Source of the DNA: an uncultured Chloroflexia bacterium
Lineage (GTDB): Bacteria > Chloroflexota > Limnocylindria > Limnocylindrales > CSP1-4
Assembly: GCA_963721655.1 (NCBI GenBank)
Contig: CAVRKH010000008.1
Span: 1,026-65,025, forward strand
Length of the DNA stretch: 64,000 nt
Direction: 5' to 3'
Position numbers and translations under genes: made by a program. The notes under the pieces are model-generated. The model was not told the origin of the DNA. It worked only from the letters and a program-made list of their open reading frames with translations, and did not search any database. The stretch's first letter is position 1. The number at the start of each line of letters is the position of its first letter. Below, in pieces: positions 1 to 64,000 of the stretch.

Positions 1-2
1 TC

Positions 3-857
3 ACGCCGACCTGGTCGCGCGACGGGCTCAACCTCGCGTACTGGCATCGCCCGGAGCCATCCGGGCCATGGGCCCTTGTCGTCGTGGATGCCGCCGGTGC
101 AAATCGGCGGATCCTGGCCGAAGGGGTGTCATTACGTGCTCGCGAGGCAATGTTCAACTGGCCAAGCAATCTGTCCTGGTCGCCCGACGGCAAGGCGATC
201 GCATTCGCCGCCGATGTGGGCGTCGATTCGTCGATCTTCGTCGCCGACCTCGCCTCTGGGTCCGCTCGTCAGATCGTTGACGAGAAGCTGCGCGCGGTCG
301 ATCCCGCGTGGGCGCCGGATGGCTCGGTCATCTCCTTCCAGAGCGAGGCGTCGTCGTCGCTGCATGTCGTGGCGCCTGACGGCTCCGACGAGCGCCAGCT
401 GGGCTGGCTGACTGGTACGTTCCTGTGGCCCGAATGGGCTCCCGACGGGAGTGCGATCGCGGTCGCCGCAGACGTCAACGGCAACGCCGAGATCTTCACC
501 GTGTCGGCCAACGGATCGGTCGTGACCAACGTCTCGAACAACCCGGGCGGCGATTTGTCGCCGAGCTGGTCGCCCGACGGGTCCCGGCTCGCGTGGGGGC
601 GTGCGATGGGGTCAGGAACGCGGGGCTGGGTGGTCGTGGCCAACGCTGACGGCAGCGCCCAGGTGCAACTCGACGAGCCGGCCGATCTGGCGCCGCCAAC
701 GTGGTCGCCCGACGGGAGCCGTGTCTACGGCTACGTGAGCGACGAGGAGGGCAAATTCCAGGCCCTGCTCGTGCTCGACCCGACCGGCGTCACGCCGGCC
801 ATCCAGGTGCCGGCCGAGGGAAACGTCGGGAACGGCAACTGGCAACGACTTCCCTGA
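3..857 (+). CDS. TolB-like PD40/WD40-like beta-propeller repeat protein, 5' end outside window
   Basis: Frame of ORF 84..857 stays open back to the window edge (TPTWSRDG..). It has repeated W(S/A)PDG..(I/L)AF blade motifs. Confidence 0.75.
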   Translation, partial: TPTWSRDGLNLAYWHRPEPSGPWALVVVDAAGANRRILAEGVSLRAREAMFNWPSNLSWSPDGKAIAFAADVGVDSSIFVADLASGSARQIVDEKLRAVDPAWAPDGSVISFQSEASSSLHVVAPDGSDERQLGWLTGTFLWPEWAPDGSAIAVAADVNGNAEIFTVSANGSVVTNVSNNPGGDLSPSWSPDGSRLAWGRAMGSGTRGWVVVANADGSAQVQLDEPADLAPPTWSPDGSRVYGYVSDEEGKFQALLVLDPTGVTPAIQVPAEGNVGNGNWQRLP

Positions 858-873
858 CGAATTGGAGAACACC

Positions 874-1455
874 ATGCGCCGATTGACTCGGTTCCTCGCC
901 ACGCTCTCGTTGGGAGCGGGCCTGCTGCTCGCGGCTGCCCCGGCGTCCCTGGCTGCAAGCGTCGATCCGTCCACGCTCCAACCACCACCACCGCCGGGGG
1001 CGAAATGCCACACGGCGGGCAACCAGGTCATCTGCGACACAATTCTGAACTTCGACCTTGAAAACGAGCCCGACTTCGATCTCCCCTGCGGCACGCTCTA
1101 CCTCACGGGCACCGACTATCGCGAGGGTTTCCGCTTCTACGTCGACGGCAAGATCGTCCGTCGGCATGTCACTGGCGCCTTCAACGTGACTGGCAGCCTG
1201 TCGCCGGCTGGCGACGGACCGACGATCAGGCTCATCGCTCGCTGGAACATTTGGTCGGTGTGGCCCATTCCGGGCGGCGGCGACGACGACGCGGTCGCGA
1301 TCGAGCGGGGCCTGAGCTTGAGAGCTATTGGGCCGGGCCTCGGATCGGACTTCCACATCTCCGGTCAATTCGATCCGTTCGGCAACCACACGGGCCTGTT
1401 CACCGCGTTCTCGGACGAGTCGATGGATGCGCTGTGCGAGGCACTGGCCGCCTGA
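874..1455 (+). CDS. secreted hypothetical protein
   Basis: ORF 862..1455. ATG at 874 follows GGAG. The N-terminus MRRLTRFLATLSLGAGLLLAAAPASLAAS is signal-peptide-like. Confidence 0.65.
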   Translation: MRRLTRFLATLSLGAGLLLAAAPASLAASVDPSTLQPPPPPGAKCHTAGNQVICDTILNFDLENEPDFDLPCGTLYLTGTDYREGFRFYVDGKIVRRHVTGAFNVTGSLSPAGDGPTIRLIARWNIWSVWPIPGGGDDDAVAIERGLSLRAIGPGLGSDFHISGQFDPFGNHTGLFTAFSDESMDALCEALAA

Positions 1456-1486
1456 TAAGAGGGGCTGTAACGCGCAATCGGTATTA

Positions 1487-1586
1487 GCCAGATATCAGTC
1501 GGGGTGATGAGCGGCAAGAGAATCGGGCCTGCAACGCTCGCAAGGGCTCGAATCTCACGCCATACAACATTCCCGCTGATATCTGG
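1487..1586. repeat. perfect 12-bp inverted repeat closing a ~76-nt lower-GC insert (candidate structured RNA or MITE-like remnant)
   Basis: GCCAGATATCAG at 1487-1498 and CTGATATCTGGC at 1575-1586. The stem extends by about 5 more bp (CGGGG/CCCCG-like). Intergenic, upstream of ispH. Confidence 0.35.
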
Positions 1587-1748
1587 CCGTGAACCGCCGC
1601 TTCGAGCTTGCCGTTGATTACCAGGGCTGATGATTGGCCAGAACTGCGCACGTTCTGGCCAAACCGGTCCCGTGGACTGGTCCTGCCGCGCAACCCGGAC
1701 AAGGCGCGCCGACCCGGGTTTTGGCGGTCCCCGTGCGATAATCGACCC

Positions 1749-18204: not shown

Positions 18205-20057
18205 ATGTCCAGCCTTCGTGACCGCACATCTCGCTTCGGCGTCCTGGCGGCCCTTGGTGCCACGTTCGCTCTTGGCGCGTCGACCGTGCTGGCGTCGTCG
18301 CCAGGCGTCGACGTTCGGCTCTCGAACGACTTCCCGGACGGCGGCTACGTGAGCGCCGACGACATCGCCGGGCTTCCGCATTACTCCGACGACACGCTCG
18401 ACGAATGCTCGCGCGCCCGAGGGCGCCAGAACGAACCCGCCCTCGCGATCAATCCGCGCGACAGCCGGGTCATGATCGGATCCGCGAACGATTACTGCGG
18501 AACGTTCAACGACGGCGATGACGACGACGGAGCGCCAATCGCGTCCGGCCCCATCTGGCTCGGCTACTACCGCTCCGAGAACGCGGGCGAATCCTTCGTC
18601 AGCTCGCTGGTCCCGGGATATCCGGGCGACACGTCGACCCTGGGCCAGTTGGCCAGGATTCGAACGGCGAGCGCCGGCGATCCAGTCGCCGCGTGGGACG
18701 CCGACGGCCGCGTGTTCATGGGCGCCGAATCGAGCGACGACCCCGCCGGCTCGAAGAAGACGTTCGGCGACGAGTGGGTCGCCAGATACGTCAATCCCGA
18801 CGGACCCGATGGCGACACCATCAACGACGGCAGCCGCTTCGCCGGCTCGGTCGTGGTCGCCAAGGGGTCCTCCGCGCCGAACCTGCTCGGCAAGTTCCAC
18901 GACAAGACGGCGATCGAAGCCGACCGCACGGACACCTCGTGCCGCGGCAACGTGTACTTCGCGTGGTCGCGCTTCACGGGCAACGGCGACACGGCGGGTG
19001 GGCATCTACTTTGTCCGCTCGACCGATCACGGCGTCACGTTCTCGCAGCCGATGAAGCTGACCGCTGGCGTGCACGACGTCCAGCTGCCCGAGATCTCGA
19101 TCACCGGCAACGGCCACGTGTACGTGACCTACCGACAAATCGAGGACAGCGGCCACCAGGTCGACAGCGTCGGGGTCGTGAAGTCGACCGACTGCGGCAA
19201 GACCTTCTCGAGGCCGGCGACGATCACGAACGTCGCCGCCATGGGCCTGACCGACGCCCTGCTCGGGGGCGGCAACGCCCGCGACTGCGGGGACGGGGTC
19301 GGGACCGGCTGCGAGAGCGGGTACACCTTCTTCCGCGCCGACACCGGTCCGCGCGCCACCGCCGACCAGGCCGACACCAATCATGAATGGGTCTACGTGG
19401 CCTACGAGGCGATCGTCCCGGGCACGGAGGTCGACACGGGCACGACCTTCGGCTGGGCAGACGAGCAGGGTGCCGGTGGCCAGTCGGCCGTCTACTACGT
19501 TCGATACGACGGCGCGGCGAACACCCACACGACGCCTGAACGCATCTCGCCCATCAGTGACGGCCAGCAGCTGTACCCGGACCTCGCCGTCGACGACGGC
19601 GTCGTCCATGCGCTCTGGTGGGACACCCGAAACGACGCGAACAACGACGCCACGTCGATGCTCGTGCGACCGCCAGGCAACGACGCGGACGGCAACGTCG
19701 GGCCGTCGTTCGACGTGTACGCGGCCACCCGGCCCACGGACGGTGGCTCGTGGACATCCGACGTGCAACTGACCGACTTCACCTCCAATGGCCAGTGGGA
19801 GCAGTTCGGGGGCCGGACGGTCCCGTTCGGTGGCGACTACCTGCTGGATCGATTCGCAGGACGGCACGACGTTTGGGACGTGGACGGATTGGCGGAACAC
19901 GGTCCCCGGCACCGACCTTCGCGAGGAGGAGGAGGACGAGACCGGGGCGGACGTGCTCCAGTGTCGGTTCGACACGGGTGACGGCGTCATCTCCGGCGAC
20001 ACGTGTCCGCGAGACGGCGGGCTCGACCAGGACATCTACGGCGACGCCGCGCCGTAG
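18205..20057 (+). pseudogene. secreted BNR/Asp-box (sialidase-fold-like) protein, two frame changes
   Basis: Signal peptide MSSLRDRTSRFGVLAALGATFALGAS (ORF 17929 frame). Asp-boxes STDHGVTF and STDCGKTF (ORF 18518 frame). C-terminus lies in ORF 19788..20057. Breaks near 18985-18995 and 19840-19850. Confidence 0.6.
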
Positions 20058-23132: not shown

Positions 23133-23346
23133 ACCGGAACGCATCCGGAACTGGCGTTTTGACGTATCTCCATGTGTCCGGGTCAGATCCGGCCGACCAT
23201 CGCACCCTCCTGGGGGTTCGGGATCCCGCGGCAATCCCTCTGCCGCGGGGTCCCGACGTCTCGACCGTCGGTACACTCGACGCGTGACAACGAGCGAGCG
23301 CGCGGCAGGATTGCCGACCGAAGGCCAGTTGACCGGCCTCGGGGAC

Positions 23347-24815
23347 ATGGACCCCGACGAGTTCCGCGCCGCGGCGCACGCGGTCGTCGACCTCATGGCC
23401 GACTATCTCGAAACGGTCGACGCGCGGCCGGTCCTGCCGCCGATCGAGCCCGGTAGCCTGCGCGGCCGATTTCCCGAGACCGCGCCCGAGGATCCGGAGG
23501 CGCTGGACGCGATCCTCGCCGACTACGGCAGGCTGGTCGAGCCGAACGCGACCCACTGGCAGCACCCGGGCTTCATGGCCTATTTCGCCTCGACGGCCTC
23601 CGGGCCCGGGATCCTCGGCGAGATGCTCACCGCGGCACTCAACCAGAACCCGATGCTGTGGCGCACGTCGCCGATCGGGACGGAGCTCGAGGGCGTGGTC
23701 GTCGACTGGCTCCGGCAGGGCGGTCGGGCTTCCGGAGGGGTTCGATGGCCTGCTGACCGATACCGCCTCCACCTCGACGCTCATCGCACTCGCGGCGGCG
23801 CGCGAGGCGGCCGGAGTCGATGCGTCGGCCGAGGGCCTTCCGGCACGGCGCGACGTGCCGCCGCTCCGTGTCTACGCCTCGGCCGAGGCCCACAGTTCGG
23901 TCGAGAAGGCGTGCATGACGCTCGGGCTCGGCCGTGCGTCGCTGGTGCGGATCCCGGTCGACGAGCGGTTCGCGCTCCGCCCGGAGTCGCTCGAGGCCGC
24001 GATCGAGGCCGATCGGGCCGCGGGCCGCCTGCCGATCGCGATCGTGGCGACGGTCGGGACGACGTCGTCGACATCGGTCGACCCCGTCGCCGCCATGGCC
24101 GACATCGCCGAACGCGAGCGGACGTGGCTCCACGTCGATGCGGCGTATGCGGGCGCGGTCGCGCTGGTGCCCGAGCTGCGGGCACCGTTCGAAGGCTGGG
24201 AGCGCGCCAATTCGATCGTGGTCAATCCGCACAAGTGGCTGTTCACGCCGCTCGACGCATCGCTGCTGCTCACGCGCCGCATGGACCGGCTCGCCGCGGC
24301 GTTCAGCCTCCATCCCGAGTACCTGCGGACGCTCGACCGCGTCGCGCCGGTCCGCGACTACACGGATTACACGCCCCAGCTCGGTCGGCGCATGCGCGCG
24401 CTGAAGCTGTGGATCCAGCTGCGCTGGTTCGGCCTGGAGGGAATCCGCCGGCGGATCCGCCATCACCTCGAGCTCGCGGCCCGACTTGCGGCGGAGGTCG
24501 AGGCCAACCCCGACTGGGAGCTGCTGGCGCCCGTCCCGTTCTCGACCGTCTGTCTTCGATGGCGACCGGCGCGCCTCGTGGGCAGGGAGCGGGACGCGAC
24601 GGTTGCCGCCGCGCTGGATGCGCGCGAACGCCGCGATCATGGATGCGGTGAACCGCTCCGGGGAGGCGTTCCTGTCGCATACGCGCCTCGACGGCCGGTT
24701 CACGATCCGCGTCGCGATCGGCAACCCGCGGACGCAGGGGCGCCACGTCGAGCGCGTCTGGGAGCTGCTCCGCGAGGCCGCGGCGACGGTCGAGGCGACA
24801 ACGGCCCTGCCGTGA
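23347..24815 (+). pseudogene. group II pyridoxal-phosphate-dependent (aromatic amino acid type) decarboxylase, two frame changes
   Basis: N-part HWQHPGFMAYFAS is in ORF 23083..24651. The middle with NPHKWLFTPLDAS is in ORF 23855..25399. The C-end ..AIMDAVNRSGEAFLSHTRLDGRFTIRVAIGNP.. is in ORF 24486..24815. Breaks near 23715-23720 and 24600-24625. Confidence 0.7.
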
Positions 24816-25413: not shown

Positions 25414-25933
25414 CTACCAGAGGCGGGGGCGGCCGAACCTCGATCGGGACGGTGCCGGCCGTGTCGCCGTGGCAGTCCGGCCGGGATAGGCGGCCGGCCG
25501 TCGCGCGAGCTCCGTGTAGATCTCCTGGCGGAACGTGAGCCCCGCGGGCGCCCGAGCGAGCCACTCGAGGTAGTCCGGGTCGTGCGCCGCGAGCTCACTG
25601 ACCGTCCAGCCGGCGTAGCGCCCGAAGCGAGAGCGTGCGCCCGCGCGGGTCGACGCCCCGGCGGGCTGCAGCAGCGGAGATCGGTCCGGTCGGCGCGGGC
25701 GGCGGCGTGCTGCCATGCCCCGCGGGCCGTTGCGTAATTCGTCGCGTGGCGTCGTACGCCAGGCGCGTTTCGTCCCGCCCGAGGACGCTCCACGCCTCGT
25801 TGAGCGCGGCCATCTTCGACCCGTCGCCCCCGAAGTCCGGGTGGTGGCGGCGGGCGAGGTCGCGGTAGGCGGCCTGGATCGCGGATCGGTTCGCGTCGGG
25901 TGAAACGCCGAGGACGGCATAATGGTCGGCCAT
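25414..25933 (-). pseudogene. J-domain (DnaJ-like) protein, one frame change
   Basis: MADHYAVLGVSPDANRSAIQAAYRDLARRHHPD is in ORF 25595..26242. The C-part FGRYAGWTVSELAAHDPDYLEWLARAPAG.. is in ORF 25414..25959. Break around 25640-25700. Confidence 0.6.
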
Positions 25934-27563: not shown

Positions 27564-27954
27564 GTGCCGCCGATCGACGAGCTGACCCGCATCGAGCCCG
27601 TCCTGCTCGACCGTCTCGAGCACCAGGGCATCTTCACGACCGGCCTGCTGCTGGAGGTGTCGGAGACACCGACCCGCCGCCAGACGCTCGCCGACCAGGT
27701 CAAGGCGACGCCGAACGACGTGCTCGACGTGGCGGGACGAGGCGCTGATGCTCAACCTGGCCGGCTTCGGGGAGGACGAGCACCAGCTGCTGATCCAGTC
27801 CGGGATCGAAGGGCTGCGCGACATCCTCGCGCTCAGCGTCGACGAGTTCCGCGAACGGCTCGCCCGCGGGGCGACCGAGCTGAAGGTGGACCCACCGAGC
27901 GACCTGACGATCCAGAGCTGGTGGGATCAGGCGCGCACGCTCGAAGAGGAGTAG
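27564..27954 (+). pseudogene. DUF4332-like helix-hairpin-helix protein, one frame change
   Basis: ORF 27564 N-part (..LLDRLEHQGIFTTGLLLE..) joins ORF 27748..27954 (MLNLAGFGEDEHQLLIQSGIEGLRD..). Break near 27720-27730. Confidence 0.5.
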
Positions 27955-35631: not shown

Positions 35632-35783
35632 GAGCGCCTCCTGGCGGCTGGAGTCATGCCCCGCGCGACTCGCCGCCTGGACCCGAAATGTACGCCTTGC
35701 AGAAACGCACCGGCAAACCCGGTTTCACGTTGCGGCGGCATGTCAAACGGAGTCTGCCAAGACCGCTGATGCGCGCTGCTACG

Positions 35784-36971: not shown

Positions 36972-37031
36972 CGGGGGAGCCCGCCATTCGGCCTGCCACC
37001 ACGCCCAAGGGCAGGGGAGGGTACCCGCTTC

Positions 37032-37832: not shown

Positions 37833-38809
37833 TGGGCGGCATCTACGTGATCGGCGAGGTGACCGCCGACGGGCACCTCGCGAACATCTCGGCGGAGGTC
37901 GCCACGCTCGCACGGAACGTCGCCGCGGAGGGCGGCCAGCAGGTCTCGGGGATCGTCGTCGCGGCCGATCCGCAGCCGGCGGCCGAGGAGCTCGCCCGCT
38001 ATCTGCCGCGCGTCCTGACGGTCACCGAACCGGCCGCCGCCGACCGGCCGTGGTCGATGGTCGCGGCCGAGCGGATTGCCCGCATCCTGGGCGACGACGT
38101 CCGCGAGTTCGAGTTCGTCGGCGCCGGACCCGACGGCCGGGATTTCGCCGGGGCGCTGTCCGCGCTCATGGGCTGGGGCGTCCTGGGCAACGCCGTCGCG
38201 GTCACCTGGGCGGACGGCTCGCCGGTGGTCGAGATGAGCGTGTTCGGCGGCAAGCTGACGACGACGAGCCGGTTCACGACCGACGCGGGCATCGTCACGG
38301 TGCGCCCGAACGTGGTGACCGCGCAGCCCGCGGACACGGCCGGGACCGTGGAGCCGTACGTGTCGGAGGAGCCCCTCGAGCAGCCGTCCGTCAAGGTCGT
38401 GGAGCGCATCTCCGAGGCGTCGGCGGCAGTGCCGATCGAGGAGGCCAAGATCATCGTCGCCGGCGGGCGGGGCGTCGGTGGAGCCGAGGGCTTCGCGCTG
38501 GTCGAGGAGCTCGCCGAGGCAATGGGCGGGGTCGTCGGGGCGACCCGGGCGGCGGTCGATTCGGGCTGGATCCCGTACAGCCAGCAGATCGGCCAGACCG
38601 GCAAGATCGTGAAGCCCCAGCTGTACTTCGCGCTCGGGATCAGCGGCGCCATCCAGCACAAGGTCGGCATGCAGACGGCGGGCACGATCGTGGCCGTCAA
38701 CCGCGACCCCGACGCGCCCATCGCCGAGTTCGCCGACATGGTCGTGGTCGGTGACCTGTTCGACGTCGGCCGGGCAGTGCTCGCCGAGCTACGCTCCCGG
38801 TCGGGCTGA
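37832..38809 (+). CDS. etfA: electron transfer flavoprotein alpha subunit
   Basis: ..IIVAGGRGVG.. GATRAAVDSGWIPYSQQIGQTGKIVKPQLYFALGISGAIQH. Confidence 0.85.
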   Translation: MGGIYVIGEVTADGHLANISAEVATLARNVAAEGGQQVSGIVVAADPQPAAEELARYLPRVLTVTEPAAADRPWSMVAAERIARILGDDVREFEFVGAGPDGRDFAGALSALMGWGVLGNAVAVTWADGSPVVEMSVFGGKLTTTSRFTTDAGIVTVRPNVVTAQPADTAGTVEPYVSEEPLEQPSVKVVERISEASAAVPIEEAKIIVAGGRGVGGAEGFALVEELAEAMGGVVGATRAAVDSGWIPYSQQIGQTGKIVKPQLYFALGISGAIQHKVGMQTAGTIVAVNRDPDAPIAEFADMVVVGDLFDVGRAVLAELRSRSG

Positions 38810-38821
38810 GGCAGCGGCGGC

Positions 38822-39418
38822 ATGGAACCGGTCCTCCTGCTGCCCCTGCTGGCATTCATCGCGTTGGCCGCGCTGTCGCTGATCGTCCTCCGCCGCGCCG
38901 GTCGGCTCATCGCCACGACCCGTGAGATCCAGGGCTTCCGTGCCGCGGTCCGCGACCTCGACGCACGGATCGGGATGTCGCTCGACGGCGCCGCGCAGCG
39001 GATCGACTCGGTCCGCCGTCAGCAGCTCTCGGCGGATGGCCTGGGCGACACGATCAGCGCGACCAGCGACGCGATCGGGCGCTACACCGATGAGGCACGC
39101 GCCCTCAAGGGGCCGCCCGAGGCGGCCGCCATCGCGGTCGACATCGTGACGGACCTCGGCCGCGCCAGGCGGGCGATCGACATGGTCGAGCACGGCGCGA
39201 CGATCCTGGCCTCCGTCCGCCGCGGTCAGCGCGAGCTCGAGGCGCAAACCTCGATCAAGCGCGGCTATCTCAACCTGATCCACGCTCGCGAGGCGATCGC
39301 CCGGCACGCCGCCCGGGCGGAAGCGCTCGATCCCGGCCGCTCCCCGAAGCGCACCTGGCAGCCGCTGGCGCCCGAGCTTGGCGAGGCTCACGACGACGCC
39401 TCGAACCACACCATCTAG
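38822..39418 (+). CDS. hypothetical protein with N-terminal TM helix
   Basis: ORF 38822..39418. MEPVLLLPLLAFIALAALSLIVL is followed by a helical-looking domain. Confidence 0.5.
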   Translation: MEPVLLLPLLAFIALAALSLIVLRRAGRLIATTREIQGFRAAVRDLDARIGMSLDGAAQRIDSVRRQQLSADGLGDTISATSDAIGRYTDEARALKGPPEAAAIAVDIVTDLGRARRAIDMVEHGATILASVRRGQRELEAQTSIKRGYLNLIHAREAIARHAARAEALDPGRSPKRTWQPLAPELGEAHDDASNHTI

Positions 39419-39452
39419 TGGTATCCTCCCGGTAGACCACTACCCCTAGTGG
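39406..39452. promoter_or_regulatory. two tandem NrdR-box-like 16-bp palindromes
   Basis: CCACACCATCTAGTGG (39406-39421) and CCACTACCCCTAGTGG (39437-39452). Both are CAC-N8-GTG, with centres 31 bp apart, directly upstream of nrdR. Confidence 0.6.
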
Positions 39453-39472
39453 TATGTGCCAGCAGGAGAAGG

Positions 39473-39949
39473 ATGCGCTGCCCCCAGTGCGGGACGCGGG
39501 ACACCCGCGTCATCGACTCGCGCGACCTCGACGACTCAGCGACGATCCGCCGCCGCCGTGAATGCGCCTCGTGCGCGACCCGGTTCACGACCTACGAGCG
39601 CGTCGAGGCGGCGCGCCTGGTCGTCGTCAAGCGCGATGGGACGCGCCAGGAGTTCGATCGGTCGAAGCTCGTCTCCGGCCTGCGCAAGGCGCTGACGCGA
39701 CGACCGGTGCCGGACGGCGCGGCCGAACAGGCCGCCGACGAGATGGAGGCCGAGCTGCGGGCGGCCGGCGTCTCGGAGATCCCGTCGTCCCGGGTTGGTG
39801 CCCTGGCCATGGAGCAGCTGCGCGCGATCGACCACATCGCGTACATCCGGTTCGCCAGCGTGTACCAGAGCTTCGAGGATCTCGAGGACCTCAAGCGCGA
39901 GGTCGACACGCTGTACGCCGAGAAGGGCGACGGGAGCGGCCGCACGTGA
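39473..39949 (+). CDS. nrdR: transcriptional repressor NrdR
   Basis: ATG 39473 after AGGAGAAGG. MRCPQCG..DTRVIDSR.. C..C..RFTTYE (zinc ribbon), then an ATP-cone (..IAYIRFASVY). Confidence 0.9.
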   Translation: MRCPQCGTRDTRVIDSRDLDDSATIRRRRECASCATRFTTYERVEAARLVVVKRDGTRQEFDRSKLVSGLRKALTRRPVPDGAAEQAADEMEAELRAAGVSEIPSSRVGALAMEQLRAIDHIAYIRFASVYQSFEDLEDLKREVDTLYAEKGDGSGRT

Positions 39950-40002
39950 GCGGCGCTCTGCGGGGATGACCACGGTGGCCTGAAGGGGTCCTCCCGAGAC
40001 AG

Positions 40003-41181
40003 GTGCTCCGGGAGTTCATCGAGGCGGGCTACATCGTCTCGGACACCGAGATCCCGGATCGCAATCTCCAGCCGGCGAGCATCGACCTGACGCTTGGACC
40101 CGTCGCATACCGCCTTCGGAGCAGCTTCCTGCCTTCCAACGGGAAGGTCCGCGAGAAGCTCAGGGACTACCACATGGGCGACCTCGACCTGTCCGGCGAT
40201 GGGGCGGTGCTCGAGCAGGACCGGCCGTACCTGATCCCGCTCCAGGAGCGCGTCCGACTGCCCGCTGGCATCCGCGGCCGGACGAACCCGCGGAGCTCGA
40301 CCGGCCGGCTCGACGTCTTCACCCGCGTCATCACCGACAACGGCGCGCACTTCGACGAGGTCCGTGACGGCTACGAGGGAGAGCTCTTTCTCGAAGTCGT
40401 CCCGATGTCATTCACGGTCAAGGCCCGAGCCGGGATCACCCTGAACCAGTTGCGCCTGGTGTCCGGTCAGGCTCGGCTGTCGGACGGCGACCTGATCGAG
40501 CTGAGCCGGACCGACCCCATCGTGTTTCCGGGCTCGTCGTCGCTGCCGGGCGATCGCGCGGTCGTCGCCGACGGGCTGTTTCTCAGCGTCGACCTGTCCG
40601 GACAAGGGAAGTCGTTCGCCGGGTACCGCGCTCGACGGAGCAGCGCGCTCCTGGAGCTCGACCGGGTCAAGGCGTATCAGGTCGCGGACTACTGGGATCG
40701 GGTCGAGCCGAAGGACGGCCGGCTCATCCTCGACTCCGGCGAGTTCTACCTGCTCGTCTCGCGCGAGCGGGTTCGGGTGCCACCGGACTACGCTGCGGAG
40801 ATGGCTGCCTACGATCCGACGAGCGGCGAGCTTCGAACCCACTACGCGGGCTTCTTCGATCCCGGGTTTGGCGACGTGGCAGGTGACGCCCCTGGAACGC
40901 CGGCGGTGCTCGAAGTGCGGGCCCACGATGTCCCGTTCTCGCTCGAGCACGGGCAGCGCCTGTGCAAGCTCACCTTCGAGCGGATGTCGACCCGCCCCGA
41001 CCAGCTGTACGGCGCCGGGCTCGGCTCGTCCTTCCAGCGGCAGTACCTCGCCCTGAGCCGTCAGTTCCGCGCCGATCAGGCGGGCGTACCCAAGCCGCGC
41101 ATCCGGACACGCGTCGACCAGGCACCGCTCGCACTGGTGCAGGAAGCGCCGGCCCCGCTGCCGGTGTCCCCGCGCGAGTAG
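40003..41181 (+). CDS. long-form 2'-deoxycytidine 5'-triphosphate deaminase-like protein
   Basis: GTG 40003. ..NLQPASIDLTLG.. GRTNPRSSTGRLDVF.. This is a two-lobe DCD-like layout of about 390 aa. Confidence 0.6.
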   Translation: MLREFIEAGYIVSDTEIPDRNLQPASIDLTLGPVAYRLRSSFLPSNGKVREKLRDYHMGDLDLSGDGAVLEQDRPYLIPLQERVRLPAGIRGRTNPRSSTGRLDVFTRVITDNGAHFDEVRDGYEGELFLEVVPMSFTVKARAGITLNQLRLVSGQARLSDGDLIELSRTDPIVFPGSSSLPGDRAVVADGLFLSVDLSGQGKSFAGYRARRSSALLELDRVKAYQVADYWDRVEPKDGRLILDSGEFYLLVSRERVRVPPDYAAEMAAYDPTSGELRTHYAGFFDPGFGDVAGDAPGTPAVLEVRAHDVPFSLEHGQRLCKLTFERMSTRPDQLYGAGLGSSFQRQYLALSRQFRADQAGVPKPRIRTRVDQAPLALVQEAPAPLPVSPRE

Positions 41182-41189: not shown

Positions 41190-42044
41190 GTGAACGACGC
41201 AGTCGACTGGGCCCGCGACCTCGGTGGCGGCACGCGCGTCTCGCTCGTCCAGGCCGGCACGTTCCGGTCCGACGCCGGGGCGCTGTTCGGGCCGGTGCCC
41301 TGGCTGCTGTGGAACCGCTGGGTCACCGACGAGATCGACGATGAGAACCGCCTGCTCCAGGCGCTCAATTGCCTGTTGATCGAGACGCCCGCCGGTCGGG
41401 TCCTCGTGGAGACCGGCATCGGCGACCGGCTGGACGAGAAGACCCGGGCCATGCGCGGCTACGAGGGGCCGTGGGTGGTCGCCGCCCTCGAGAACGCGGG
41501 CTTCGAACCGGAGTCCGTCGACGTCGTCGCGATGAGCCACCTCCACTTCGACCATGCCGGGGGCCTGCTGCGGTCCGATGGTTCGCGCGCCTTCCCGAGG
41601 GCCAGCATCGTGGCCCAACGTTCCGAGTGGGAGATCGCGCTCGGCGACAACCCGCGGCTCGTGGCGAGCTACATCCAGCCGGAACTGCGGCTCGTGCGCG
41701 ACTGGGGTGCCGAGGGCTGGGCCGAGGGCGAGAAGGAGCTGCTCCCCGGGGTGACCGCCATCCCCACCGGCGGGCATTCGACCGGCCACCAGGCCATCGT
41801 CGTGCGCGCGCCCGGCAGCCGTCCGCTCGCGTTCTTCGGCGACCTGTGCATGCGCCCGTGGGCCGCGAACCCGCGCTGGGTGTCGTCGTTCGACGACTTC
41901 CCGCTCGACTCGGTCATGGTCAAGGCGTCGCTCTTCGCGCAGGCCGCCGACGAGGACTGGATCGTGGTGCTGTCCCACGAACGCGACCAGCCGATCGGGC
42001 GCCTGGTCCGCGACCGGGACCGCTTCCGCTACGAGGCGGACTGA
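41190..42044 (+). CDS. MBL-fold metallo-hydrolase
   Basis: GTG 41190 in ORF 40962..42044. The SHLHFDHAGG motif is present. Confidence 0.75.
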   Translation: MNDAVDWARDLGGGTRVSLVQAGTFRSDAGALFGPVPWLLWNRWVTDEIDDENRLLQALNCLLIETPAGRVLVETGIGDRLDEKTRAMRGYEGPWVVAALENAGFEPESVDVVAMSHLHFDHAGGLLRSDGSRAFPRASIVAQRSEWEIALGDNPRLVASYIQPELRLVRDWGAEGWAEGEKELLPGVTAIPTGGHSTGHQAIVVRAPGSRPLAFFGDLCMRPWAANPRWVSSFDDFPLDSVMVKASLFAQAADEDWIVVLSHERDQPIGRLVRDRDRFRYEAD

Positions 42045-42732
42045 GAGGGAGTTGCGGTCGCGTCCGGCAGGATCGCCTCGACCCGCTGGGATGCGCCCTC
42101 GACGCTCAGTGGCCCCTGGGCGACGAAGCGGATCGCGCCGTCCGGGTCGATGAAGAACTGGGTCGGCAGCGCGTAGACCCGGTACTCGTGGAACACGTGT
42201 CCTGAGCCATCGAAGCCGACCGTGTACTCCAGGTCGATAGCGCTCGCGGTACTCGCGCACGTCGTCGGCGGTCGTCTCCTGGACGCTGACCCCGACGACT
42301 TCGAGGCCCTGGTCCTTGTACTTCTCCGCGACCTCGCGCAGGACCGGCGTCTCGCCCTGGCACGGCGGGCACCAGCTCGCGAAGAAGTTGACCCAGACCG
42401 CCTTGCCGCGCAGGTCCGAGAGGCGGACCGGGTTGCCGTCGACGTCGTGCAGCTGGTACGTCGTGCCGTCCGGCGAGAGCGATGTCGAAATCGGGCGCGA
42501 GGTCGCCGACGTGCAGCCCTTCGACCGCCTCGCCGATGATGAACGGGGTCGCCTGCGGGTCCTCGAACATCGGGCCGCCGGCCGTGTTCCCGAGCGGCGT
42601 CGTCGCGATGGTCAACCCGACGATCGCCACGACCACCGCGCCGAACGCGATCAGCAGCTGCCGCCCGCTGAACGGGCCGATGAGCCCGCGCCGCTCCGGC
42701 GTGTGCCGGAACGCCGGTCGCTGGTCGGCCAC
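42029..42732 (-). pseudogene. TlpA/ResA-like membrane-anchored thioredoxin, two frame changes
   Basis: N-terminal TM plus ..DLAPDFDI is in ORF 42106..42732. The core LSPDGTTYQLHDVDGNPVRLSDLRGKAVWVNFFASWCPPCQGE is in a second frame. The end ..YALPTQFFIDPDGAIRFV.. is in the frame of ORF 42029..43483. Breaks near 42480-42490 and 42235-42250. Confidence 0.65.
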
Positions 42733-48184: not shown

Positions 48185-48683
48185 TCATGCCTCGGACGTT
48201 GGCTCCGATGTCGACGTGAGCAACTCCCAATCGTCGGGGACCGTCGTCGGGTCGTATACGTCCGGCTCGCGTTGGAGCGCGAGGGCCCGGCGCGCGGCCG
48301 TCGGCAGGGTCGCGAGGTCGGCGGCGCGGCGCAGGTAGTCGGCGAGGATCGCCTCGTCGACGTCGATGGATGGCTCGAAGGTGAAGTAGCGGAACTGCTT
48401 CAGCCGCTCCTCGGCGCCGTGCAGCAGCCGTTCGGGGTCCGCGAGCAACGTGCCGTGCTCGAAGCCGAGGTGGATGTGCTTCCGCTCGGGTCCGATCCAG
48501 GCGAAGTTCCGGACGCGTTTGCCCTCGGGCAGCGAGTAGGCGATCCAGCGCCAGCCGGGGCGGATCGTCTCCGACGGTGCCAGCGACCGTGCGAAAGATC
48601 AGCGATCGGAGCGCCATGCCGGTCTCGCGGATGGCGTCGGGATAGTCGTCGAGCATGAACTCGACGGGCTGCGGCTCTTCCAT
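48185..48683 (-). pseudogene. DUF1801-type protein, one frame change
   Basis: MEEPQPVEFMLDDYPDAIRETGMALRSLIFRTVAGTV is followed in a second frame by ETIRPGWRWIAYSLPEGKRVRNFAWIGPERKHIHLGFEHGTLLADPERLL.. (ORF 48185..48448). Break near 48565-48575. Confidence 0.6.
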
Positions 48684-48755
48684 GGCGGGATCATGCGACC
48701 CGTTGTCGCCGCGTCGTGTCAGGATTGGATGACCCTGAGGAGCGTGAGGAGCGAG

Positions 48756-49543: not shown

Positions 49544-49976
49544 GCACGACGACCGAACACCGGATCTTCTCGATGACCGTGGCCTCGGTCTACCCGCTCT
49601 ACCTCGCGAAGGTGGAGAAGAAGGGCCGCACGCAGGACGAGCTCGACGCCGTGATCCGCTGGCTCACGGGATTCGACGAGCGAGCTCGAGCGGCACCTCG
49701 CCGCCGGCACGACCTTCGCGGACTTCTTCGCGGTGCGCGACTGAACCCGAACGCGGGCTGATCACAGGCGTGATCTGCGGAGTGCGCGTCCAGGAGATCG
49801 AGGACCCGCTCATGCAGCAGATCCGCTACCTCGACAAGCTCGTGGACGAGCTCGCGAAGGGCCGGGCACTGGAGAAGGTGCTCCGCACCTGGAGGCGGTC
49901 AGGCCCGCGCGACGACGCCGTCGCGAACCGGGTGGTCAGCGGGTTCATCGCGTACGGCAGCGGGCGGTCGGGCTGA
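49540..49976 (+). pseudogene. DUF2200-like protein, three frame changes within ~100 nt
   Basis: [39 protein letters not shown] (frame a), [17 protein letters not shown] (frame c), RLNPNAG (frame a), [35 protein letters not shown] (frame b). Confidence 0.55.
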
Positions 49977-54952: not shown

Positions 54953-55765
54953 TCAGATGCCGGCCGCGTTCTGATCGAGGATGCCTTGCGCGGCATCTGC
55001 CCCTGCCTTCGTCGGCCGGCCCCGAAGGATCCACTCGAACCCGACCGCGATCAGCGCACCGACGATCGGGCCAACGAGGTAGACCCAGTAGTGCGTCAGG
55101 TCGCCACCGACGAGCATCGGTCCAAGCGAGCGAGCCGGGTTCATCGATGCGCCGGACACCGGCGCGCCCCACACGGACACGAGGCCGATGTACGCGCCGA
55201 TGGCGAGCGCCCCGTTGAACCCCACGTTGCGCGGCGCCGGCGGCCGTGCCGAGGACCACGCTGACGAGACAGAGCGTGAGCACGGCCTCGGTGAGGACCG
55301 CCGTCCCATCCGACACGCCCTGACCGGGCTCGGTGGCACCGTTGAGGATGCCGCCGTAGGCCAGCTGCAGGAAGACCGAGGCCAGGATCGCTCCGAGGAC
55401 CTCGGCCACGATGTAGCCAGGTACCCGCCGCCACGGGAAGTTGCCCGGACCGCGAAGGCCAGCGTGACCGCTGGGTTGAGGTGCGCCCCCGAGATCGTCC
55501 CCATGAAGAAGATGATCCCCATCACCATCATGCCCGGGGCCAGCGCCTTCATGGCCAGGGTCAGGTCGCCGCCGATGGGCAGGGCGCCGATCACGCCGCC
55601 GCCGGCGGCGACGAGCACGAGCAGGAACGTGCCCCACACCTCGGCGAACAGGCGCTTGAACTCGAGGCTGGAGTCGTCGAAATCGACTTCGCTCTTGCGC
55701 ACCGACTCGGATCGGCGAGCGAGCCAGGCCAGGATCGGCTCACCGGTTTGCGTCGCGACGGTCAT
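54953..55765 (-). pseudogene. MIP-family channel (aquaporin/GlpF-like), two frame changes
   Basis: Both NPA boxes (HLNPAVTLA, SMNPARSLGP) are in ORF 54953..55837. The middle helices (NFPWRRVPGYIVAEVLGAILASVFLQLAYGG..LTLCLVSVVLGTAAGA) are in ORF 54927..55637. Breaks near 55440 and 55240. Confidence 0.7.
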
Positions 55766-55880
55766 CGTGTCCCTCCCTTTGCGATGCCGCTCGGCACACC
55801 CGTCCGCCATCGGACGCTCAGTGTGACAAAACGGCAACCGGCCAAACGCACGGACTCGGCGCGACGCGTAGCCTAGGGAG

Positions 55881-57249
55881 GTGAAGAGCGACTGGCCGGC
55901 GGGTCATCTGCCATCCCGAGAGGAGCGCACCGCGGCGGGGGCGAAGACCCGGATCAGTTCGCCGCCGGCTTCCCTCGGAACGTGGTCGCCGAATCCCGAT
56001 CGCGTCGACCCGATCGAGCTGCTCGAGAGCCAGGCGACCACGCGCCTGCAGGATCTCGTGCCGGTCCGCTATGGCCGGATGTCGATCTCGCCGTTCACCT
56101 TCTACCGAGGTGCGGCCTTGCCGATGGCATCGGATCTCTCTGCGGCAGGACCGAATTCCGGTATCACGGTCCAGCTCTGCGGCGACGCACATCTGTCGAA
56201 TTTCGGATTGTTCGCTTCGCCCGAGCGCGACCTTGCTCTTCGACATCAATGACTTCGACGAAACCATCCCCGGGCCATTCGAATTCGACCTCAAGCGTCT
56301 CGCGGCGAGCCTCGTGGTCGCCGGTCGAGAGCTCGGCCTGAGCGCCCACGATGCGCGGCACACGGTCCACCGTGCCATGCGCTCATACCGCGATCGCATG
56401 GCGGGCTACGCGACGATGCGCGCCATCGATGTCTACTACGCGCGCGTCGATGCCAGCGGGGTCCTCGCCTACGCAAACAAGGCTGCGCGCGGGATGATCA
56501 AGAGGACGGTCAAGGCGACCGCCCATCACGACTCCGTCCACGAACTGCCCAAGCTCACCTCGCTCGTGGACGGCAAGCGCCGCATCGTGGAGCATCCACC
56601 GACGCTCATCAAACTCCGCGACATGACCCAACCACTGGCCAATTCGGCTCTGCGGGCATACCGCGAGACGCTGCAGGAGGACCGGCGTGTCCTCATTGAC
56701 CGGTATCGCCTGGCGGATTACGCGCTCAAGGTCGTGGGCGTCGGCAGCGTCGGGCTCAGCGCCTTCGTCGGCCTGATGACCGGTGGCTCGGACGACGATC
56801 CGCTGTTCCTCCAGGCCAAGCAAGCGGAGGCGTCGGTGTACGAGCGATATCTCGGACCGAGCGAACACGCGAGCCATGGCGAGCGGGTCGTGACAGGTCA
56901 GCGTCGCCTCCAGGCAGCAGGCGACATCCTTCTCGGCTGGACGGTCGGTGAACGAGGTCAACACGTCTACATTCGGCAGCTCCAGGACCAGAAGGGCAGC
57001 GCGGTCATCGACACGATGACGGCGGAGGACCTCGCGACATGGGGCGAACTCTGCGCATGGGCCCTCGCCCGCGGTCATGCCCGGTCGGGCGACCCTGCCA
57101 CGATCGCCGGCTACCTCGGGACCGACAAAGAGTTCGAGCATGCGATGGCGACGTTCGCCGAGGCCTACGCGGACCAGAACGAGCAGGACCACGCGGCGTT
57201 GCTGGCGGCCATCAAGAGCGGTCGGATCTCGGCCGTGCAGGGGGTCTGA
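55881..57249 (+). pseudogene. DUF2252 family protein, one frame change
   Basis: ORF 55881..56252 (..FYRGAALPMASDL..CGDAHLSNFGLFASPER) joins ORF 56071..57249 (LLFDINDFDETIPGPFEFDLKRLA..). Break near 56229-56232. Confidence 0.7.
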
Positions 57250-59821: not shown

Positions 59822-59872
59822 CATCGCACGGTCCCACGCCCGGGTCGAAGGGCCCGGGCGTGGGACGAGGAT

Positions 59873-60272
59873 TTGCCTGTGGCGAAAACGATCGTCAACA
59901 CCCCGGACGCCCCCGGGTCGGCGTCTCACGGCACGTTTCCGTACAGCCAGGCCGTGATCGCGGGCGGGCTCGTCTTCGTCAGTGGCCAGGGCCCCTTCGA
60001 TCCCGCGACCGGGTCGATCGTCGGTTCGACCATCCAGGAGCAGACCCGGCAGGTCCTGCGCAACTGCGACGCCATCCTCCGCGCCGCAGGGAGCTCGATG
60101 GACAAGGTCGTGAGCGCGACCTTCATCCTCCGCGCACCCGGAGGACTTCGCCGGGATGAACGAGGAGTGGGCTCGCTGGTTCACGACCGATCCGCCGGCT
60201 CGGCAGGGCGCCGCGCATCCCCTGGACATCGAGGGGTTCCGGATCTCGATCGCGCTCGTCGCCGAAGCCTGA
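59873..60272 (+). pseudogene. RidA/YjgF family protein, one frame change
   Basis: ..YSQAVIAGGLVFVSGQGPFDPATG.. is in ORF 59873..60331. The expected end DFAGMNEEWARWFTTDPPARQGAAHPLDIEGFRISIALVAEA* is in another frame. Break near 60135-60140. Confidence 0.65.
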
Positions 60273-61490: not shown

Positions 61491-62039
61491 TGGGCTACCT
61501 CCCGCGCCACCGGTCGCGCGTCGGCGTCGAGGGCCGCGCGCAATGCACGCATCGCGTAGAAAAGTCGGGATCGAACGGTGCCGACGGGAACGCCGAGCGC
61601 CTCGGCGACGTCGACGAGCGAAAGGTCAAGGTGGTGGTGCAACACGACGACTGCGCGGTGGTCGACCGACAGCCGCCGGAACGCACGCTCCAGCTGGTCG
61701 CGGTCAGCGACGGTCGCGATGTCATCGGAAGCGGATGATTCGTCGAAGTGCATGACGCGGAGGTTCGGCGCCAGGCGCCGAGTCTTCTTCACCTCGGAGT
61801 AGCACGCACGGACGAGCAGGCGGTAGGCCCAACCGTCGAAGCGTGCGGGATCGCGAAGCTGTGGGAGGTCTCGCCAGATGGTCGAGCAGCGCCTGCTGCG
61901 TCGCATCGTCGGCGAGGTCGACGTCGCGAAGGATCCGGTGAGCGATGGCATGCAGCCGGTTGCCGATGACGACGGCGAGGCTCGCGAACGCCCCCTCGTC
62001 ACCGTGTTGCGCCTGCACGACCAGCTCGGTGGTGTCCAC
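61487..62039 (-). pseudogene. ECF sigma-70 factor, one frame change inside region 2
   Basis: VDTTELVVQAQHGDEGAF..DDATQQALL is in ORF 61722..62078. ..IWRDLPQLRDPARFDGWAYRLLV..VPVGTVRSRLFYA is in ORF 61487..62368. Break near 61875-61880, judged by alignment to the two paralogues. Confidence 0.7.
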
Positions 62040-62171
62040 GCCGCTCCCTTGATGAGCGCCCGGCCAGTCCGGGTGCATCTATAGGTGTATGGGAGCCGGG
62101 GCAGGCTGCGCGACTCAATCTGTTCCAAACTGCCCGGCAACGGGGTATGCGACACGAGGAACTGAGGGCGC

Positions 62172-63195
62172 GTGACGGAACCGCGATTGGCCCTTGGCCG
62201 CAGCGAAATTCTGGCGCATCGGCGGATGGTCGGATCGCTCGACGTGCGGCTCCCGGCCGGCACGGCATCGCTCGAGCGCGCCGCGTGGGCGGGACTCCAG
62301 GACAGCATGCCGCGCGCCGCCCTGCTCTCGATCCACGCGCGCGTTGAGGGCACGACGCCCGTCGGCACTGGAGGATCCGTCCCTCGTCCAGGTGTGGGGC
62401 CCGCGCTACAGCACCTACGTCATCGCGGCCGCCGACCGAGCGGTCTTCACGCTCGGCCGCCTGCCGGACGAGGGCAAGGCGCGCCGCCGCGCCGAGGACA
62501 TGGCGAACCGCCTGGACGCGTTCCTCGCCGGTCGCGCGATGGGCGACGTGGAGGCCGGTCGCGGCGTCGGTGTCAATCCGAGCGCGCTCCGCTACGGGGC
62601 GCCGACCGGGCGAATCCTGATCCGCTGGGACGGCGCCCGGCAGCCGACGGTCTGGACCGTGCCACCGCCGGCGATCGATCCGGTCGAGGCCCGCCACGAG
62701 CTCGCTCGCCGCTACCTTCATGTGTTCGGGCCAGGCACGCCGGAGGCATTCGCCGCGTGGGCGGGCATCTCGGCGGCGTCCGCGCACACGGCATTCGCGG
62801 CCCTCGGGTCTTCGCTCGTGCCCGTCCGGACGCCGATCGGCGACGGCTGGATCCTGGCCGCGGATGAGGCGACGTTCCGTGCCCCGCCGATCCCCGCAGC
62901 GCCGGCGAGGCTCCTCCCCAGCGGCGACACGTTCTTCCTGCTCCAGGGCGCCGACCGCGAGCTCCTCGTCCCCGACGCGGACCGCCGGGCGATGCTCTGG
63001 ACATCGCGCGTGTGGCCAGGCGCCGTCCTCGTCGAGGGCGAGGTCGTCGGAACGTGGCGGCGCTCGCAGGCGGTCGTCAGCATCGAGCCCTGGAGGAAGC
63101 TGACGGCCGCCCAACGGAACGCCATCGAGGAGGAGGCAGCGTCGATGCCGCTGCCCGGTATGGCGGGGTCGATCCGGGTGCGCTGGCCGCTCTAG
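62172..63195 (+). pseudogene. winged-helix DNA-binding domain protein (YcaQ/AlkZ-like family), one frame change
   Basis: The N-part is in ORF 62172..62867 (..LQDSMPRAALLSIHARVEG). It continues in ORF 62194..63195 (SALEDPSLVQVWGPRYSTYV..). Break near 62358-62362. Confidence 0.55.
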
Positions 63196-63281
63196 CGCCG
63201 CTCGATTCGACCCTCCAAGGCTGAAGCGGACACAGGATCAGTCTTCGCGGCTCTGTAACGCGCCGTCATGGCCTACTGACC

Positions 63282-63683
63282 GTGCCGGACGCTCGAGTCA
63301 GCATGCTTGTGAACGTGGACGACGAACGACTGAGCACGGGCGAGCTGTTGATGCAGTGGCGAGACGCGACGCGGGCCGCGGAGCTCGCCGAGCGCCTGGC
63401 CGAGATCGCAGCGCAAGCCGCGGACCAGGCCGATCGGGGCGCGCTGGCGTCGGATCAGATCGCCCGGATGGCCGAGAAGGCTGCCGTCGCCGCGGAGCGC
63501 GCTGCGCGGAGCGCACGAAAGGCGGCAGGGCAGGCCGCCGAGCTCGCCGTCGAGAACCGCGAGCAACGCCTGCGCGGCGCGGACGAGGCGCTCGTGACCG
63601 CTCGAGCGTCCGAGACGGAGGCGCGCGATCGCTTCCAGGATGCGGAACGGGCGACCAACCACCGTCAAGGACTGCCTCGCTAG
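63282..63683 (+). CDS. Ala-rich coiled-coil protein (paralogue of 21232..21589)
   Basis: ORF 63282..63683. DDERLSTGELLMQWRDATRAAELAERLAEIAAQAADQA.. resembles DEDETLSTASALNGWREAERSAAVA... Confidence 0.5.
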   Translation: MPDARVSMLVNVDDERLSTGELLMQWRDATRAAELAERLAEIAAQAADQADRGALASDQIARMAEKAAVAAERAARSARKAAGQAAELAVENREQRLRGADEALVTARASETEARDRFQDAERATNHRQGLPR

Positions 63684-63700
63684 CACGTACCATCTCGCGC

Positions 63701-64000
63701 ATGACAGCCGACGGGATCCGCGCCGCGATCGAGGCGGCAACCGGCCATTACGCCGCGCACCCTGAAGAGGCACGCTCGACCGACAGCGAAGCGAGGGCGT
63801 CGCTCGTCAACGGGCTTGTCATCGAGGTCGAGGGACCTGCCGGGGAGCACTTGACCACCGACATGGTTCGGTCGGTGGGCGGGACCGGTACCGCCCCGTC
63901 ACCTGGCTGGTTGCTCCGGGCGGCCGAGGCCAGTTGCGTCACCACCTTGATCGCGATGCGTGCCGCCGTCCTTGGTATCACCCTCGAAACCGTCGAAGTC
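63701..64000 (+). CDS. OsmC-like protein, 3' end outside window
   Basis: ATG 63701, open to the window edge. ..SLVNGLVIEVEGPAGEHLTTDM..GGTGTAPSPGWLLRAAEASCVTTLIAM.. Confidence 0.55.
   Translation, partial: MTADGIRAAIEAATGHYAAHPEEARSTDSEARASLVNGLVIEVEGPAGEHLTTDMVRSVGGTGTAPSPGWLLRAAEASCVTTLIAMRAAVLGITLETVEV

Follow-up and report, generated by a model that had tools for sequence, protein, structure and literature searches.

Frame breaks in a 64-kb Limnocylindria contig window are very probably residual long-read consensus errors and not signs of gene decay

Many proteins encoded in the 64,000-nucleotide stretch of DNA analyzed here (the window), from a soil member of the Chloroflexota, class Limnocylindria, become recognisable only when the reading frame is changed within the gene, which raises the question of whether these genes are decaying in the organism or were broken during assembly. 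An earlier note counted about 25 such genes and offered two readings, pseudogenisation of the Mycobacterium leprae type and indel errors of a long-read or metagenome assembly. Using profile matches, intact homologues or contigs of the same species, we verified approximately 26 frame breaks, which fall in 15 genes (decarboxylase, sulfatase-like, BNR/sialidase-like, J-domain, DUF4332, TlpA-like, DUF1801, DUF2200, aquaporin, DUF2252, RidA, ECF sigma, AlkZ/YcaQ-like, dcd and, as a probable case, RDD). The breaks lie where the earlier note had placed them and its counts agree with ours for the decarboxylase (2), the sulfatase-like (3), aquaporin (2), TlpA-like (2), BNR (2) and DUF2200 (3) genes. 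Roughly eight further loci, lacking both a Pfam family and a close homologue, are candidates in which codon usage alone switches frame. The switch at 838/839 proved to be an ordinary gene boundary at which a new signal peptide begins. The candidate loci include the following.

46.1-47.4 and 60.4-61.5 kb: candidate anti-sigma partners, codon-usage frame switch only
7.0-7.3, 8.3-8.9, 11.9-12.4, 21.3-22.1 and 54.3-54.9 kb: other candidates, codon-usage frame switch only

Comparisons were made with four same-species long-read contigs (L161, L162, L166 and L168, which have Flye-style names and ENA accessions of the form ERZ250395xx) at 96-98.6% nucleotide identity to the window, falling to 94% over 55.8-58.6 kb. 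At 94-98.6% identity these contigs represent other strains and not the same DNA, and at any one site a real, strain-specific lesion is formally possible. Short-read contigs of the same species were also available, one from SPAdes (L167) and two from MEGAHIT (L163, L164). Breaks are dense in two patches of the window, 17.5-28 kb and 46-63 kb, and the broken genes between 18 and 28 kb are the following.

18205..20054, plus strand: BNR/sialidase-family gene, ~614 aa, in three frames, with +1 breaks in two places (around 18974-18996 and 19842)
23199: RDD gene, break probable, extra A at this position
23290..24812, plus strand: PLP-dependent (aromatic amino acid type) decarboxylase, one extra G each at 23722 and 24622
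25552..25927, minus strand: J-domain protein, extra G at 25627
26028..27523, plus strand: sulfatase-like membrane protein, split over four frames, with one extra base at each of 26301 (C), 26618 (G) and 27017 (C)
27564..27951, plus strand: DUF4332 protein, one extra base at 27728/27729

Each decarboxylase junction is spanned by 20 relatives, both extra bases are missing from L168, and the repaired protein matches Pyridoxal_deC over positions 1-373/375 as a single stretch, with 98% identity to an intact homologue (P0001). Intact 614-aa homologues of the BNR/sialidase protein, one of which (P0121) is 89% identical, align over residues 1-264 (frame 1), 255-544 (frame 2) and 544-614 (frame 3). For the sulfatase-like gene, ORFs of two related loci (L065 and L084) chain over the three +1 junctions, L168 lacks all three bases, and the Sulfatase profile match of the repaired protein crosses a junction. 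The DUF4332 junction is spanned by 42 relatives and the repaired protein covers profile positions 3-122/122; the extra base is missing from L168 and from L162, which encodes an intact 129-aa protein. The J-domain protein has DnaJ (1-63/63) in one frame and ExoX-like_C in a different frame, with further extra bases in or around the gene at 25407, 25483, 25933 and 25992, and L168 carries none of the extra bases.

Between 42 and 63 kb the broken genes, together with one possible case, are these.

42041..42732, minus strand: TlpA-like thioredoxin (WCPPC), in three frames, extra base at ~42471-42475 and extra A at 42237
48188..48723, minus strand: DUF1801 protein, one extra C (48571) and one extra G (48636)
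49561..49886, plus strand: DUF2200 protein, three deletions within 75 nt
54956..55903, minus strand: aquaporin (MIP), a -1 break and a +1 break that compensate each other, near 55445 and 55230
56043..57246, plus strand: DUF2252 protein, extra A at 56230
58341: one DinB gene, break possible, a one-base difference from L166 that is not polarised
59850..60269, plus strand: RidA (L-PSP), +1 break near 60138
61491..62078, minus strand: ECF sigma factor, +1 break near 61880
62224..63192, plus strand: AlkZ-like (YcaQ-like) protein, +1 break near 62365

The two TlpA-like junctions are spanned by 27 and 29 relatives and the repaired protein matches AhpC-TSA over 1-123/124; the lesion at ~42474 is missing from both L161 and L162, in which this gene has other, private indels. 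A single frame of the DUF1801 gene holds just profile positions 24-84/85, and L166, whose DUF1801 protein is 143 aa long, lacks both extra bases. The DUF2200 lesions (-2 at 49680; -1 at 49734, GG to G; -1 at 49754, GGGG to GGG) divide the profile between positions 1-67 in one frame and 62-111 in a second. This gene is the one window break locus covered by the short-read check: all four missing bases are present in both long-read L166 and short-read L167, the latter at 98.2% identity to the window and encoding an intact 107-aa protein, in frame as expected of a long-read consensus error. In the aquaporin the MIP profile ends lie in the ORF at 54956-55903 and the middle helices (profile 81-152) in the ORF at 54930-55739. 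The DUF2252 profile is split between frame +2 (1-65) and frame +0 (59-391), and L166, with an intact protein of 454 aa, lacks the extra A. The RidA profile match (9-71/121) stops at 60124 with the remainder in the next frame, and an ORF of L018 chains over the junction, while repair extends the ECF sigma region 2 match from 33-70 to 7-70/71 and the AlkZ-like match from 28-325 to 5-325/329, in both cases crossing the junction.

Between these gene groups lies a block in which the window has almost no breaks.

29874..39965, plus strand: core block of Lit, moeA, moaC, mog, EtfD-like, acyl-CoA dehydrogenase, etfBA, a 198-aa gene and nrdR, without a coding frame break in the window
39966..41178, plus strand: dcd-like gene, with a hidden +1 break from an extra C at 39973 after codon 2

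The patchiness described in the earlier note is borne out by approximately 15 single-base insertions in 23.16-27.96 kb against one coding break in 29.9-42.0 kb, and no junction in the core block is supported by >60 relatives. The claim that 29.9-42.0 kb is free of breaks was nevertheless mistaken, as the dcd lesion had been missed: the window reads ATGACCA[C]GGTGG, where the bracketed C puts the ATG out of frame, and L161 and L162 read ATGACCAGGTGG, encoding MTRWPEGVLPRQ... (404 aa).

If the breaks reflected genuine patchy pseudogenisation, accessory and exported genes would be losing their frames while selection kept the core operons, and this contig does resemble the M. leprae case in carrying many broken genes beside intact housekeeping operons, with its breaks concentrated outside the moeA-to-nrdR block and its broken regions lying partly in strain-variable islands adjoining tRNA genes. 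The broken genes themselves do not look like pseudogenes. Pseudogene decay in bacteria is deletion-biased and produces mixed lesion types. The window lesions are almost exclusively single-base insertions, mostly of G or C, with few one- or two-base deletions and with neither nonsense codons nor larger deletions. Seven repaired proteins carrying 12 frameshifts contain no internal stops, repaired proteins give full-length Pfam matches across their junctions, and the two searched against the database are, at 98% and 89% identity, close to intact homologues. The third-position share of substitutions gave no sign of relaxed selection in the broken genes: relative to L168 this share is 66% in broken and 71% in core genes (p = 0.50) and divergence is 0.027 and 0.030, respectively, even though there are up to three frameshifts per gene.

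Inheritance of the lesions speaks against pseudogenisation as well. At each comparable site (23722, 24622, 25627, 26301, 26618, 27017, 27728, 39973, 48571, 48636, 49680, 49734, 49754, 56230 and ~42474) the window lesion is missing in same-species long-read contigs (L161, L162, L166 or L168). The single exception is the extra A at 42237, which is present in L161 and missing from L162. The sister assemblies have different lesions of their own, core genes included, with private single-base insertions in moeA, moaC-mog, EtfD, acyl-CoA dehydrogenase, etfB and etfA (L161, L162, L168). In a four-way alignment over 30055-34397 the window has no indels, L161 has six, L168 eight and L162 one, and over 37766-39551 the short-read contigs L163 and L164 align to the window without gaps; L161 and L162 both carry an extra base at 38324, where L163 and L164 agree with the window. 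The 23.2-28 kb stretch, dense in the window, is clean in L168, and 29.9-34.4 kb, clean in the window, is dense in L168. The proposed division into an intact core and broken accessory genes does not hold, being contradicted by dcd in the window and by core operon genes in L161, L162 and L168, and it is reversed in L168.

The pattern follows sequencing technology. We surveyed 64 Limnocylindria loci around EtfD and counted a frameshift when at least five other loci supported it. The 29 long-read loci (413 kb) yielded 76, of which 64 are +1 and several fall within EtfD itself, and the 35 loci of short-read or other non-MFD origin (317 kb) yielded none (Fisher p = 5e-10). The +1 bias is common to these long-read loci and to the window, where 23.16-27.96 kb has 15 single-base insertions versus two deletions. 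Genuine pseudogenisation, with no frameshifts in short-read assemblies of the class against 76 in long-read ones, with lesions that sister strains have not inherited and with core genes broken in the sister assemblies, is in our judgment very improbable.

A strong +1 bias would also be expected if the genes were functional as written and the breaks were read through by programmed +1 ribosomal frameshifting of the prfB type or by transcriptional slippage, and the net shift is indeed +1 at most window sites. The breaks have no shared slippery or homopolymer context and, unlike prfB-type sites, no conserved shift site or stimulatory motif; their positions vary among same-species assemblies and the bias is limited to long-read assemblies. 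At the break sites the reading frame is unbroken in orthologues from this species and class, and for practical purposes we reject recoding, to which we assign almost no probability.

Lesions that are private, long-read-specific and located in genes without relaxed selection lead us to conclude that the frame breaks are, with a probability of about 0.93 on these sequence comparisons, residual consensus errors of a long-read metagenome assembly and not decaying genes. Of the two readings in the earlier note, indel error is strongly supported and M. leprae-style pseudogenisation is not, and the organism most probably carries these genes intact. The window itself appears to be a Nanopore assembly, a technology that we infer, and behaves like a Nanopore-only metagenome contig produced by Flye and a single Medaka round, the route taken for the Microflora Danica (MFD) long-read MAGs, which were assembled with Flye --meta --nano-hq and one Medaka round without short-read polishing (PMC12313526). 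Their authors' check for Nanopore-associated sequencing errors found lower coding density in some lower-coverage MAGs (PMC12313526), and near-finished Nanopore R10.4 assemblies require about 40-fold coverage (Sereika et al. 2022, PMC9262707). The window shares with Nanopore-only assembly errors (IDEEL-type truncated proteins; PMC9262707, PMC12313526) its ORF-breaking single-base indels, long-read-specific and private to each assembly, in genes that are otherwise perfectly conserved. It differs from the classic Nanopore error, deletion in long homopolymers, in having mostly G/C insertions outside homopolymers, with some recurrent sites. Among 32 polarised insertions the inserted base equals its neighbour in 14, about the chance expectation, with no long runs and no shared motif, and contraction of a G run is seen in just two window lesions (49734 and 49754).

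Under the assembly-error reading, the errors would be mostly single extra bases, usually G or C and unlinked to homopolymers, arising in multi-kb patches placed differently in each independent assembly of the species. By chance a good patch would fall here over the moeA-to-nrdR block and bad patches at 17.5-28 and 46-63 kb, and this placement would create the impression of a protected core and decaying accessory genes. Local read depth or strain heterogeneity would set the patch positions, and the low-coverage or strain-variable regions named in the earlier note are a plausible cause of the errors. A possible but rather unlikely variant is that the artefact comes from microdiversity and not from low depth, with collapsed strains yielding a mosaic consensus and indels where the polisher merges diverged haplotypes. 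Several strains at 96-98.6% identity do occur in different samples, colinearity with same-species strains is lost at the tRNA-Arg cassette, and insertions recur at the same sites in independent assemblies (30155, 31075, 33090 and 38324), yet the densest patch, 23.2-28 kb, is not especially variable, being colinear with L168 at 96-97% identity.

There is a slim chance that a minority of lesions is genuine and masked by more numerous assembly errors, or that the recurrent same-site insertions mark a DNA-modification context that misleads basecalling. The strain-variable cassettes by tRNA-Pro and tRNA-Arg and the multi-frame anti-sigma genes are candidates for genuine lesions. If such a minority were real, accessory-gene decay would be ongoing in this soil Limnocylindria population.

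On the preferred reading of consensus error the breaks have no biological significance, and their value is as a data-quality warning. In their conserved genes, long-read-only MAG contigs of this clade, GTDB species representatives included, carry approximately 0.2 supported frameshifts per kb, and indels locally exceed 3 per kb. With such errors pseudogenes would be overcounted and gene calls split or fused, and the result could pass for reductive evolution; comparing reading frames with those of short-read or sister assemblies settles such cases fast.

Coding frames of the window DNA, whose GC content ranges from 65 to 73%, were assigned with a codon-usage Viterbi model, and same-strand frame switches were evaluated by a junction test in which single ORFs of relatives chain over the switch. 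Raw tblastn chaining was drowned by shadow-frame ORFs (69% GC), a problem cured by restricting the chains to codon-usage frames. Junctions 23719 and 24627 were spanned in 20 loci each, junction 27730 in 42 loci, and junctions 42235 and 42474 in 29 and 27 loci, respectively; L065, a relative's locus, crosses junctions 26300, 26617 and 27028, and a second such locus, L084, backs all three. Pfam profiles were split among single-frame pieces for DUF2200, the aquaporin, DUF2252, RidA, an ECF sigma factor and the J-domain protein, while each repaired protein gave a single full-length profile match over its junctions, as follows.

Profile matches of repaired proteins
Repaired decarboxylase: Pyridoxal_deC 1-373/375
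Repaired TlpA-like protein: AhpC-TSA 1-123/124
Repaired DUF4332 protein: DUF4332 3-122/122
Repaired ECF sigma factor: Sigma70_r2 7-70/71
Repaired AlkZ/YcaQ-like protein: AlkZ-like 5-325/329
Repaired sulfatase-like protein: Sulfatase 47-243/301

Because the BNR gene has no good Pfam model, it was checked against intact 614-aa homologues (89% identity), which align in frames 1, 2 and 3 successively. Verified breaks are nearly all net +1, from a single extra base, and long homopolymers are not involved. On this evidence the list of frame-broken genes in the earlier note is essentially right, with two amendments: the frame switch at 838/839 is an ordinary gene boundary, and the 29.9-42.0 kb stretch, described there as free of breaks, hides one, an extra C at 39973 that throws the start codon of the dcd-like gene (39966-41178, plus strand) out of frame. 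Breaks in approximately eight multi-frame loci without homologues are putative. Pfam confirms ispH, der, the ECF-sigma/PD40 fusion, map, the P450, the SnoaL-cyclase and others. The fusion is an unusual architecture in which one 633-aa ORF (9804-11702, minus strand), unbroken in the window contig, contains both the ECF sigma regions (2 and 4) and PD40 beta-propeller repeats.

Same-species contigs, all 94-98.7% identical to the window at the nucleotide level, allowed individual lesions to be compared site by site. Looking up exact copies of the 198-aa protein encoded at 38822-39415 yielded L161 and L162, contigs with Flye-style names that belong to two ENA assemblies, together with three short-read contigs, and additional look-ups retrieved L166, L167 (a short-read contig) and L168. 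Exact copies of the EtfD, acyl-CoA dehydrogenase, etfA, sigma factor, PEMT, map and ccdA proteins gave no hit, and a 50-mer around 23719 had no exact match in genome_contigs or metagenome_contigs. Relative to the long-read contig L168, the window carries 15 extra single bases and lacks two between 23.16 and 27.96 kb, and its extra bases account for every break in the decarboxylase, J-domain, sulfatase and DUF4332 genes; L168 encodes an intact 494-aa decarboxylase. Likewise, L166 has an unbroken DUF2252 gene without the window's extra A at 56230, and it also lacks both extra bases of DUF1801 (48571 and 48636). DUF2200 bears three lesions, as had been claimed, and all three are deletions found in neither L166 nor L167. 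The TlpA-like gene is disrupted in all three long-read assemblies at positions that differ in part; an initial reading of the L161 copy as intact (208 aa) was dropped, since its C-terminus is out-of-frame text. In L168 (1-2330), approximately 670 bp of the 3' part of the decarboxylase gene is apparently doubled (window 24145-24817 is matched twice), from which a second, 215-aa Pyridoxal_deC call stems; this duplication is probably another assembly artefact.

The earlier note had also proposed that core operons are spared and accessory genes hit. In a four-way alignment of 30055-34397, the window shows no indels, L161 six, L168 eight and L162 one, and between 34.4 and 42.0 kb the acyl-CoA dehydrogenase, etfB and etfA genes of L161 and L162 contain additional insertions that are private to these contigs. 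As L168 is clean at 23.16-27.96 kb and carries its eight indels at 30055-34397, the core-spared pattern is confined to the window assembly and is reversed in L168. The short-read contigs L163 and L164 align to the window without a gap over 37766-39551, and so lack the extra base present at 38324 in both L161 and L162.

Genuine pseudogenisation of the type seen in Mycobacterium leprae would be expected to leave other marks, and we sought these as internal stops, loss of codon-position bias, raised divergence and low homologue identity; none was seen. Seven repaired proteins carrying 12 frameshifts contain no internal stop, and the decarboxylase, once repaired, matches an intact protein at 98% identity. 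Substitutions relative to L168 at codon positions 1/2/3 number 26/5/60 in window-broken genes and 19/20/96 in core genes (p = 0.50), with divergences of 0.027 and 0.030, respectively. A gene that combines three independent frameshifts with a full purifying-selection signal is not decaying. Together with same-species contigs that lack the window's lesions, apart from an extra A at 42237 also present in L161, and short-read loci that are clean, the absence of stops and the retained third-position bias lead us to reject pseudogenisation.

As a control for technology, 64 Limnocylindria loci around EtfD were compared all-against-all by the junction test; a break was counted if at least five other loci supported it and the loci contradicting it were less than half as numerous. 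Every locus fetched with the EtfD-like protein (709 aa) belonged to Chloroflexota, class Limnocylindria, and the closest matches were long-read MAGs from Microflora Danica (MFD), at no more than 88% amino-acid identity. The 29 MFD long-read loci contained 76 supported frameshifts in 413 kb (64 of them +1, several within EtfD itself) and share the window's insertion signature, whereas the 35 non-MFD loci, from short-read or other assemblies and mostly with MEGAHIT or SPAdes names, contained none in 317 kb; 20 of 29 and 0 of 35 loci were affected, respectively (Fisher p = 5e-10). Breaks of the window type therefore characterise those long-read assemblies and not the clade.

Two tRNA genes lie beside variable regions.

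4370-4446: tRNA-Pro
44647-44722: tRNA-Arg

Approximately 47 nt from the 3' part of tRNA-Pro is directly repeated at 9653-9699 with two differences, flanking a 5.25-kb island with a poor codon-usage signal and no ORF longer than 244 aa. Pfam searches of 17 ORF pieces from this island (4.4-9.7 kb) returned no match, and thus no recognisable integrase; the island could be an integrated element, either heavily error-laden or novel. A second copy of the final 16 nt of tRNA-Arg lies at 48167-48182. Colinearity with L161 and L162 is lost exactly at 44720 and is restored at 48177 in L162 and L166, delimiting a 3.46-kb variable cassette (SnoaL-cyclase, anti-sigma, ECF sigma). The cyclase (44972-46036) is 98% identical, with no gaps, to that of L047, a relative's locus whose EtfD shares only 68% amino-acid identity. 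Similarly, map (15214-16010) shares 95% identity with L084 and other loci, and 90-95% with several MFD MAGs, without flanking synteny, so that these loci are uninformative for the left region. The ArsR-AHSA1-DUF1801 block (52176-53541) is 90-95% identical to L084 and to a further relative's locus, L086; a window deletion at 52770, read from L086, was dropped, as the window AHSA1 gene is intact by Pfam and the extra T belongs to L086. Such islands, whose nucleotide identity to otherwise distant MAGs is very high, suggest recent gene transfer among soil Limnocylindria. Between its EtfD and acyl-CoA dehydrogenase genes (window position 35398), L161 also contains a 1214-bp insertion, at approximately 5347-6572 of L161, that bears a gene with a faint DUF6923 match and is missing from the window and L162.

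MFD long-read MAGs were built from Nanopore reads alone with Flye --meta --nano-hq, followed by one Medaka round, and the authors screened the catalogue for potential Nanopore-associated errors, coding density being reduced in some lower-coverage MAGs (PMC12313526). Approximately 40-fold coverage is needed before Nanopore R10.4 assemblies approach finished quality (PMC9262707). We infer that the window is a Nanopore-only contig of this kind, in which the breaks would be leftover consensus errors grouped in kb-scale patches, and local depth or strain mixing may lie behind the patches. The error signature, G or C insertions outside homopolymers, is unusual, and the surroundings of 32 polarised insertions, searched for motifs and homopolymers, showed neither. 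At 30155, 31075, 33090, 38324 and 42237, independent same-species long-read assemblies coincide in the position of an extra base; the base inserted at such recurrent sites (L161, L162, L168) sometimes differs between assemblies, with no motif found. This recurrence points to site-specific systematic errors that are not purely random. A few lesions in the window may be genuine. Assembly indel error, the other cause raised in the earlier note, is strongly supported by the same-species comparisons, the technology control and the lack of decay signs; as a strongly supported assembly artefact, the frame breaks are of low biological interest.
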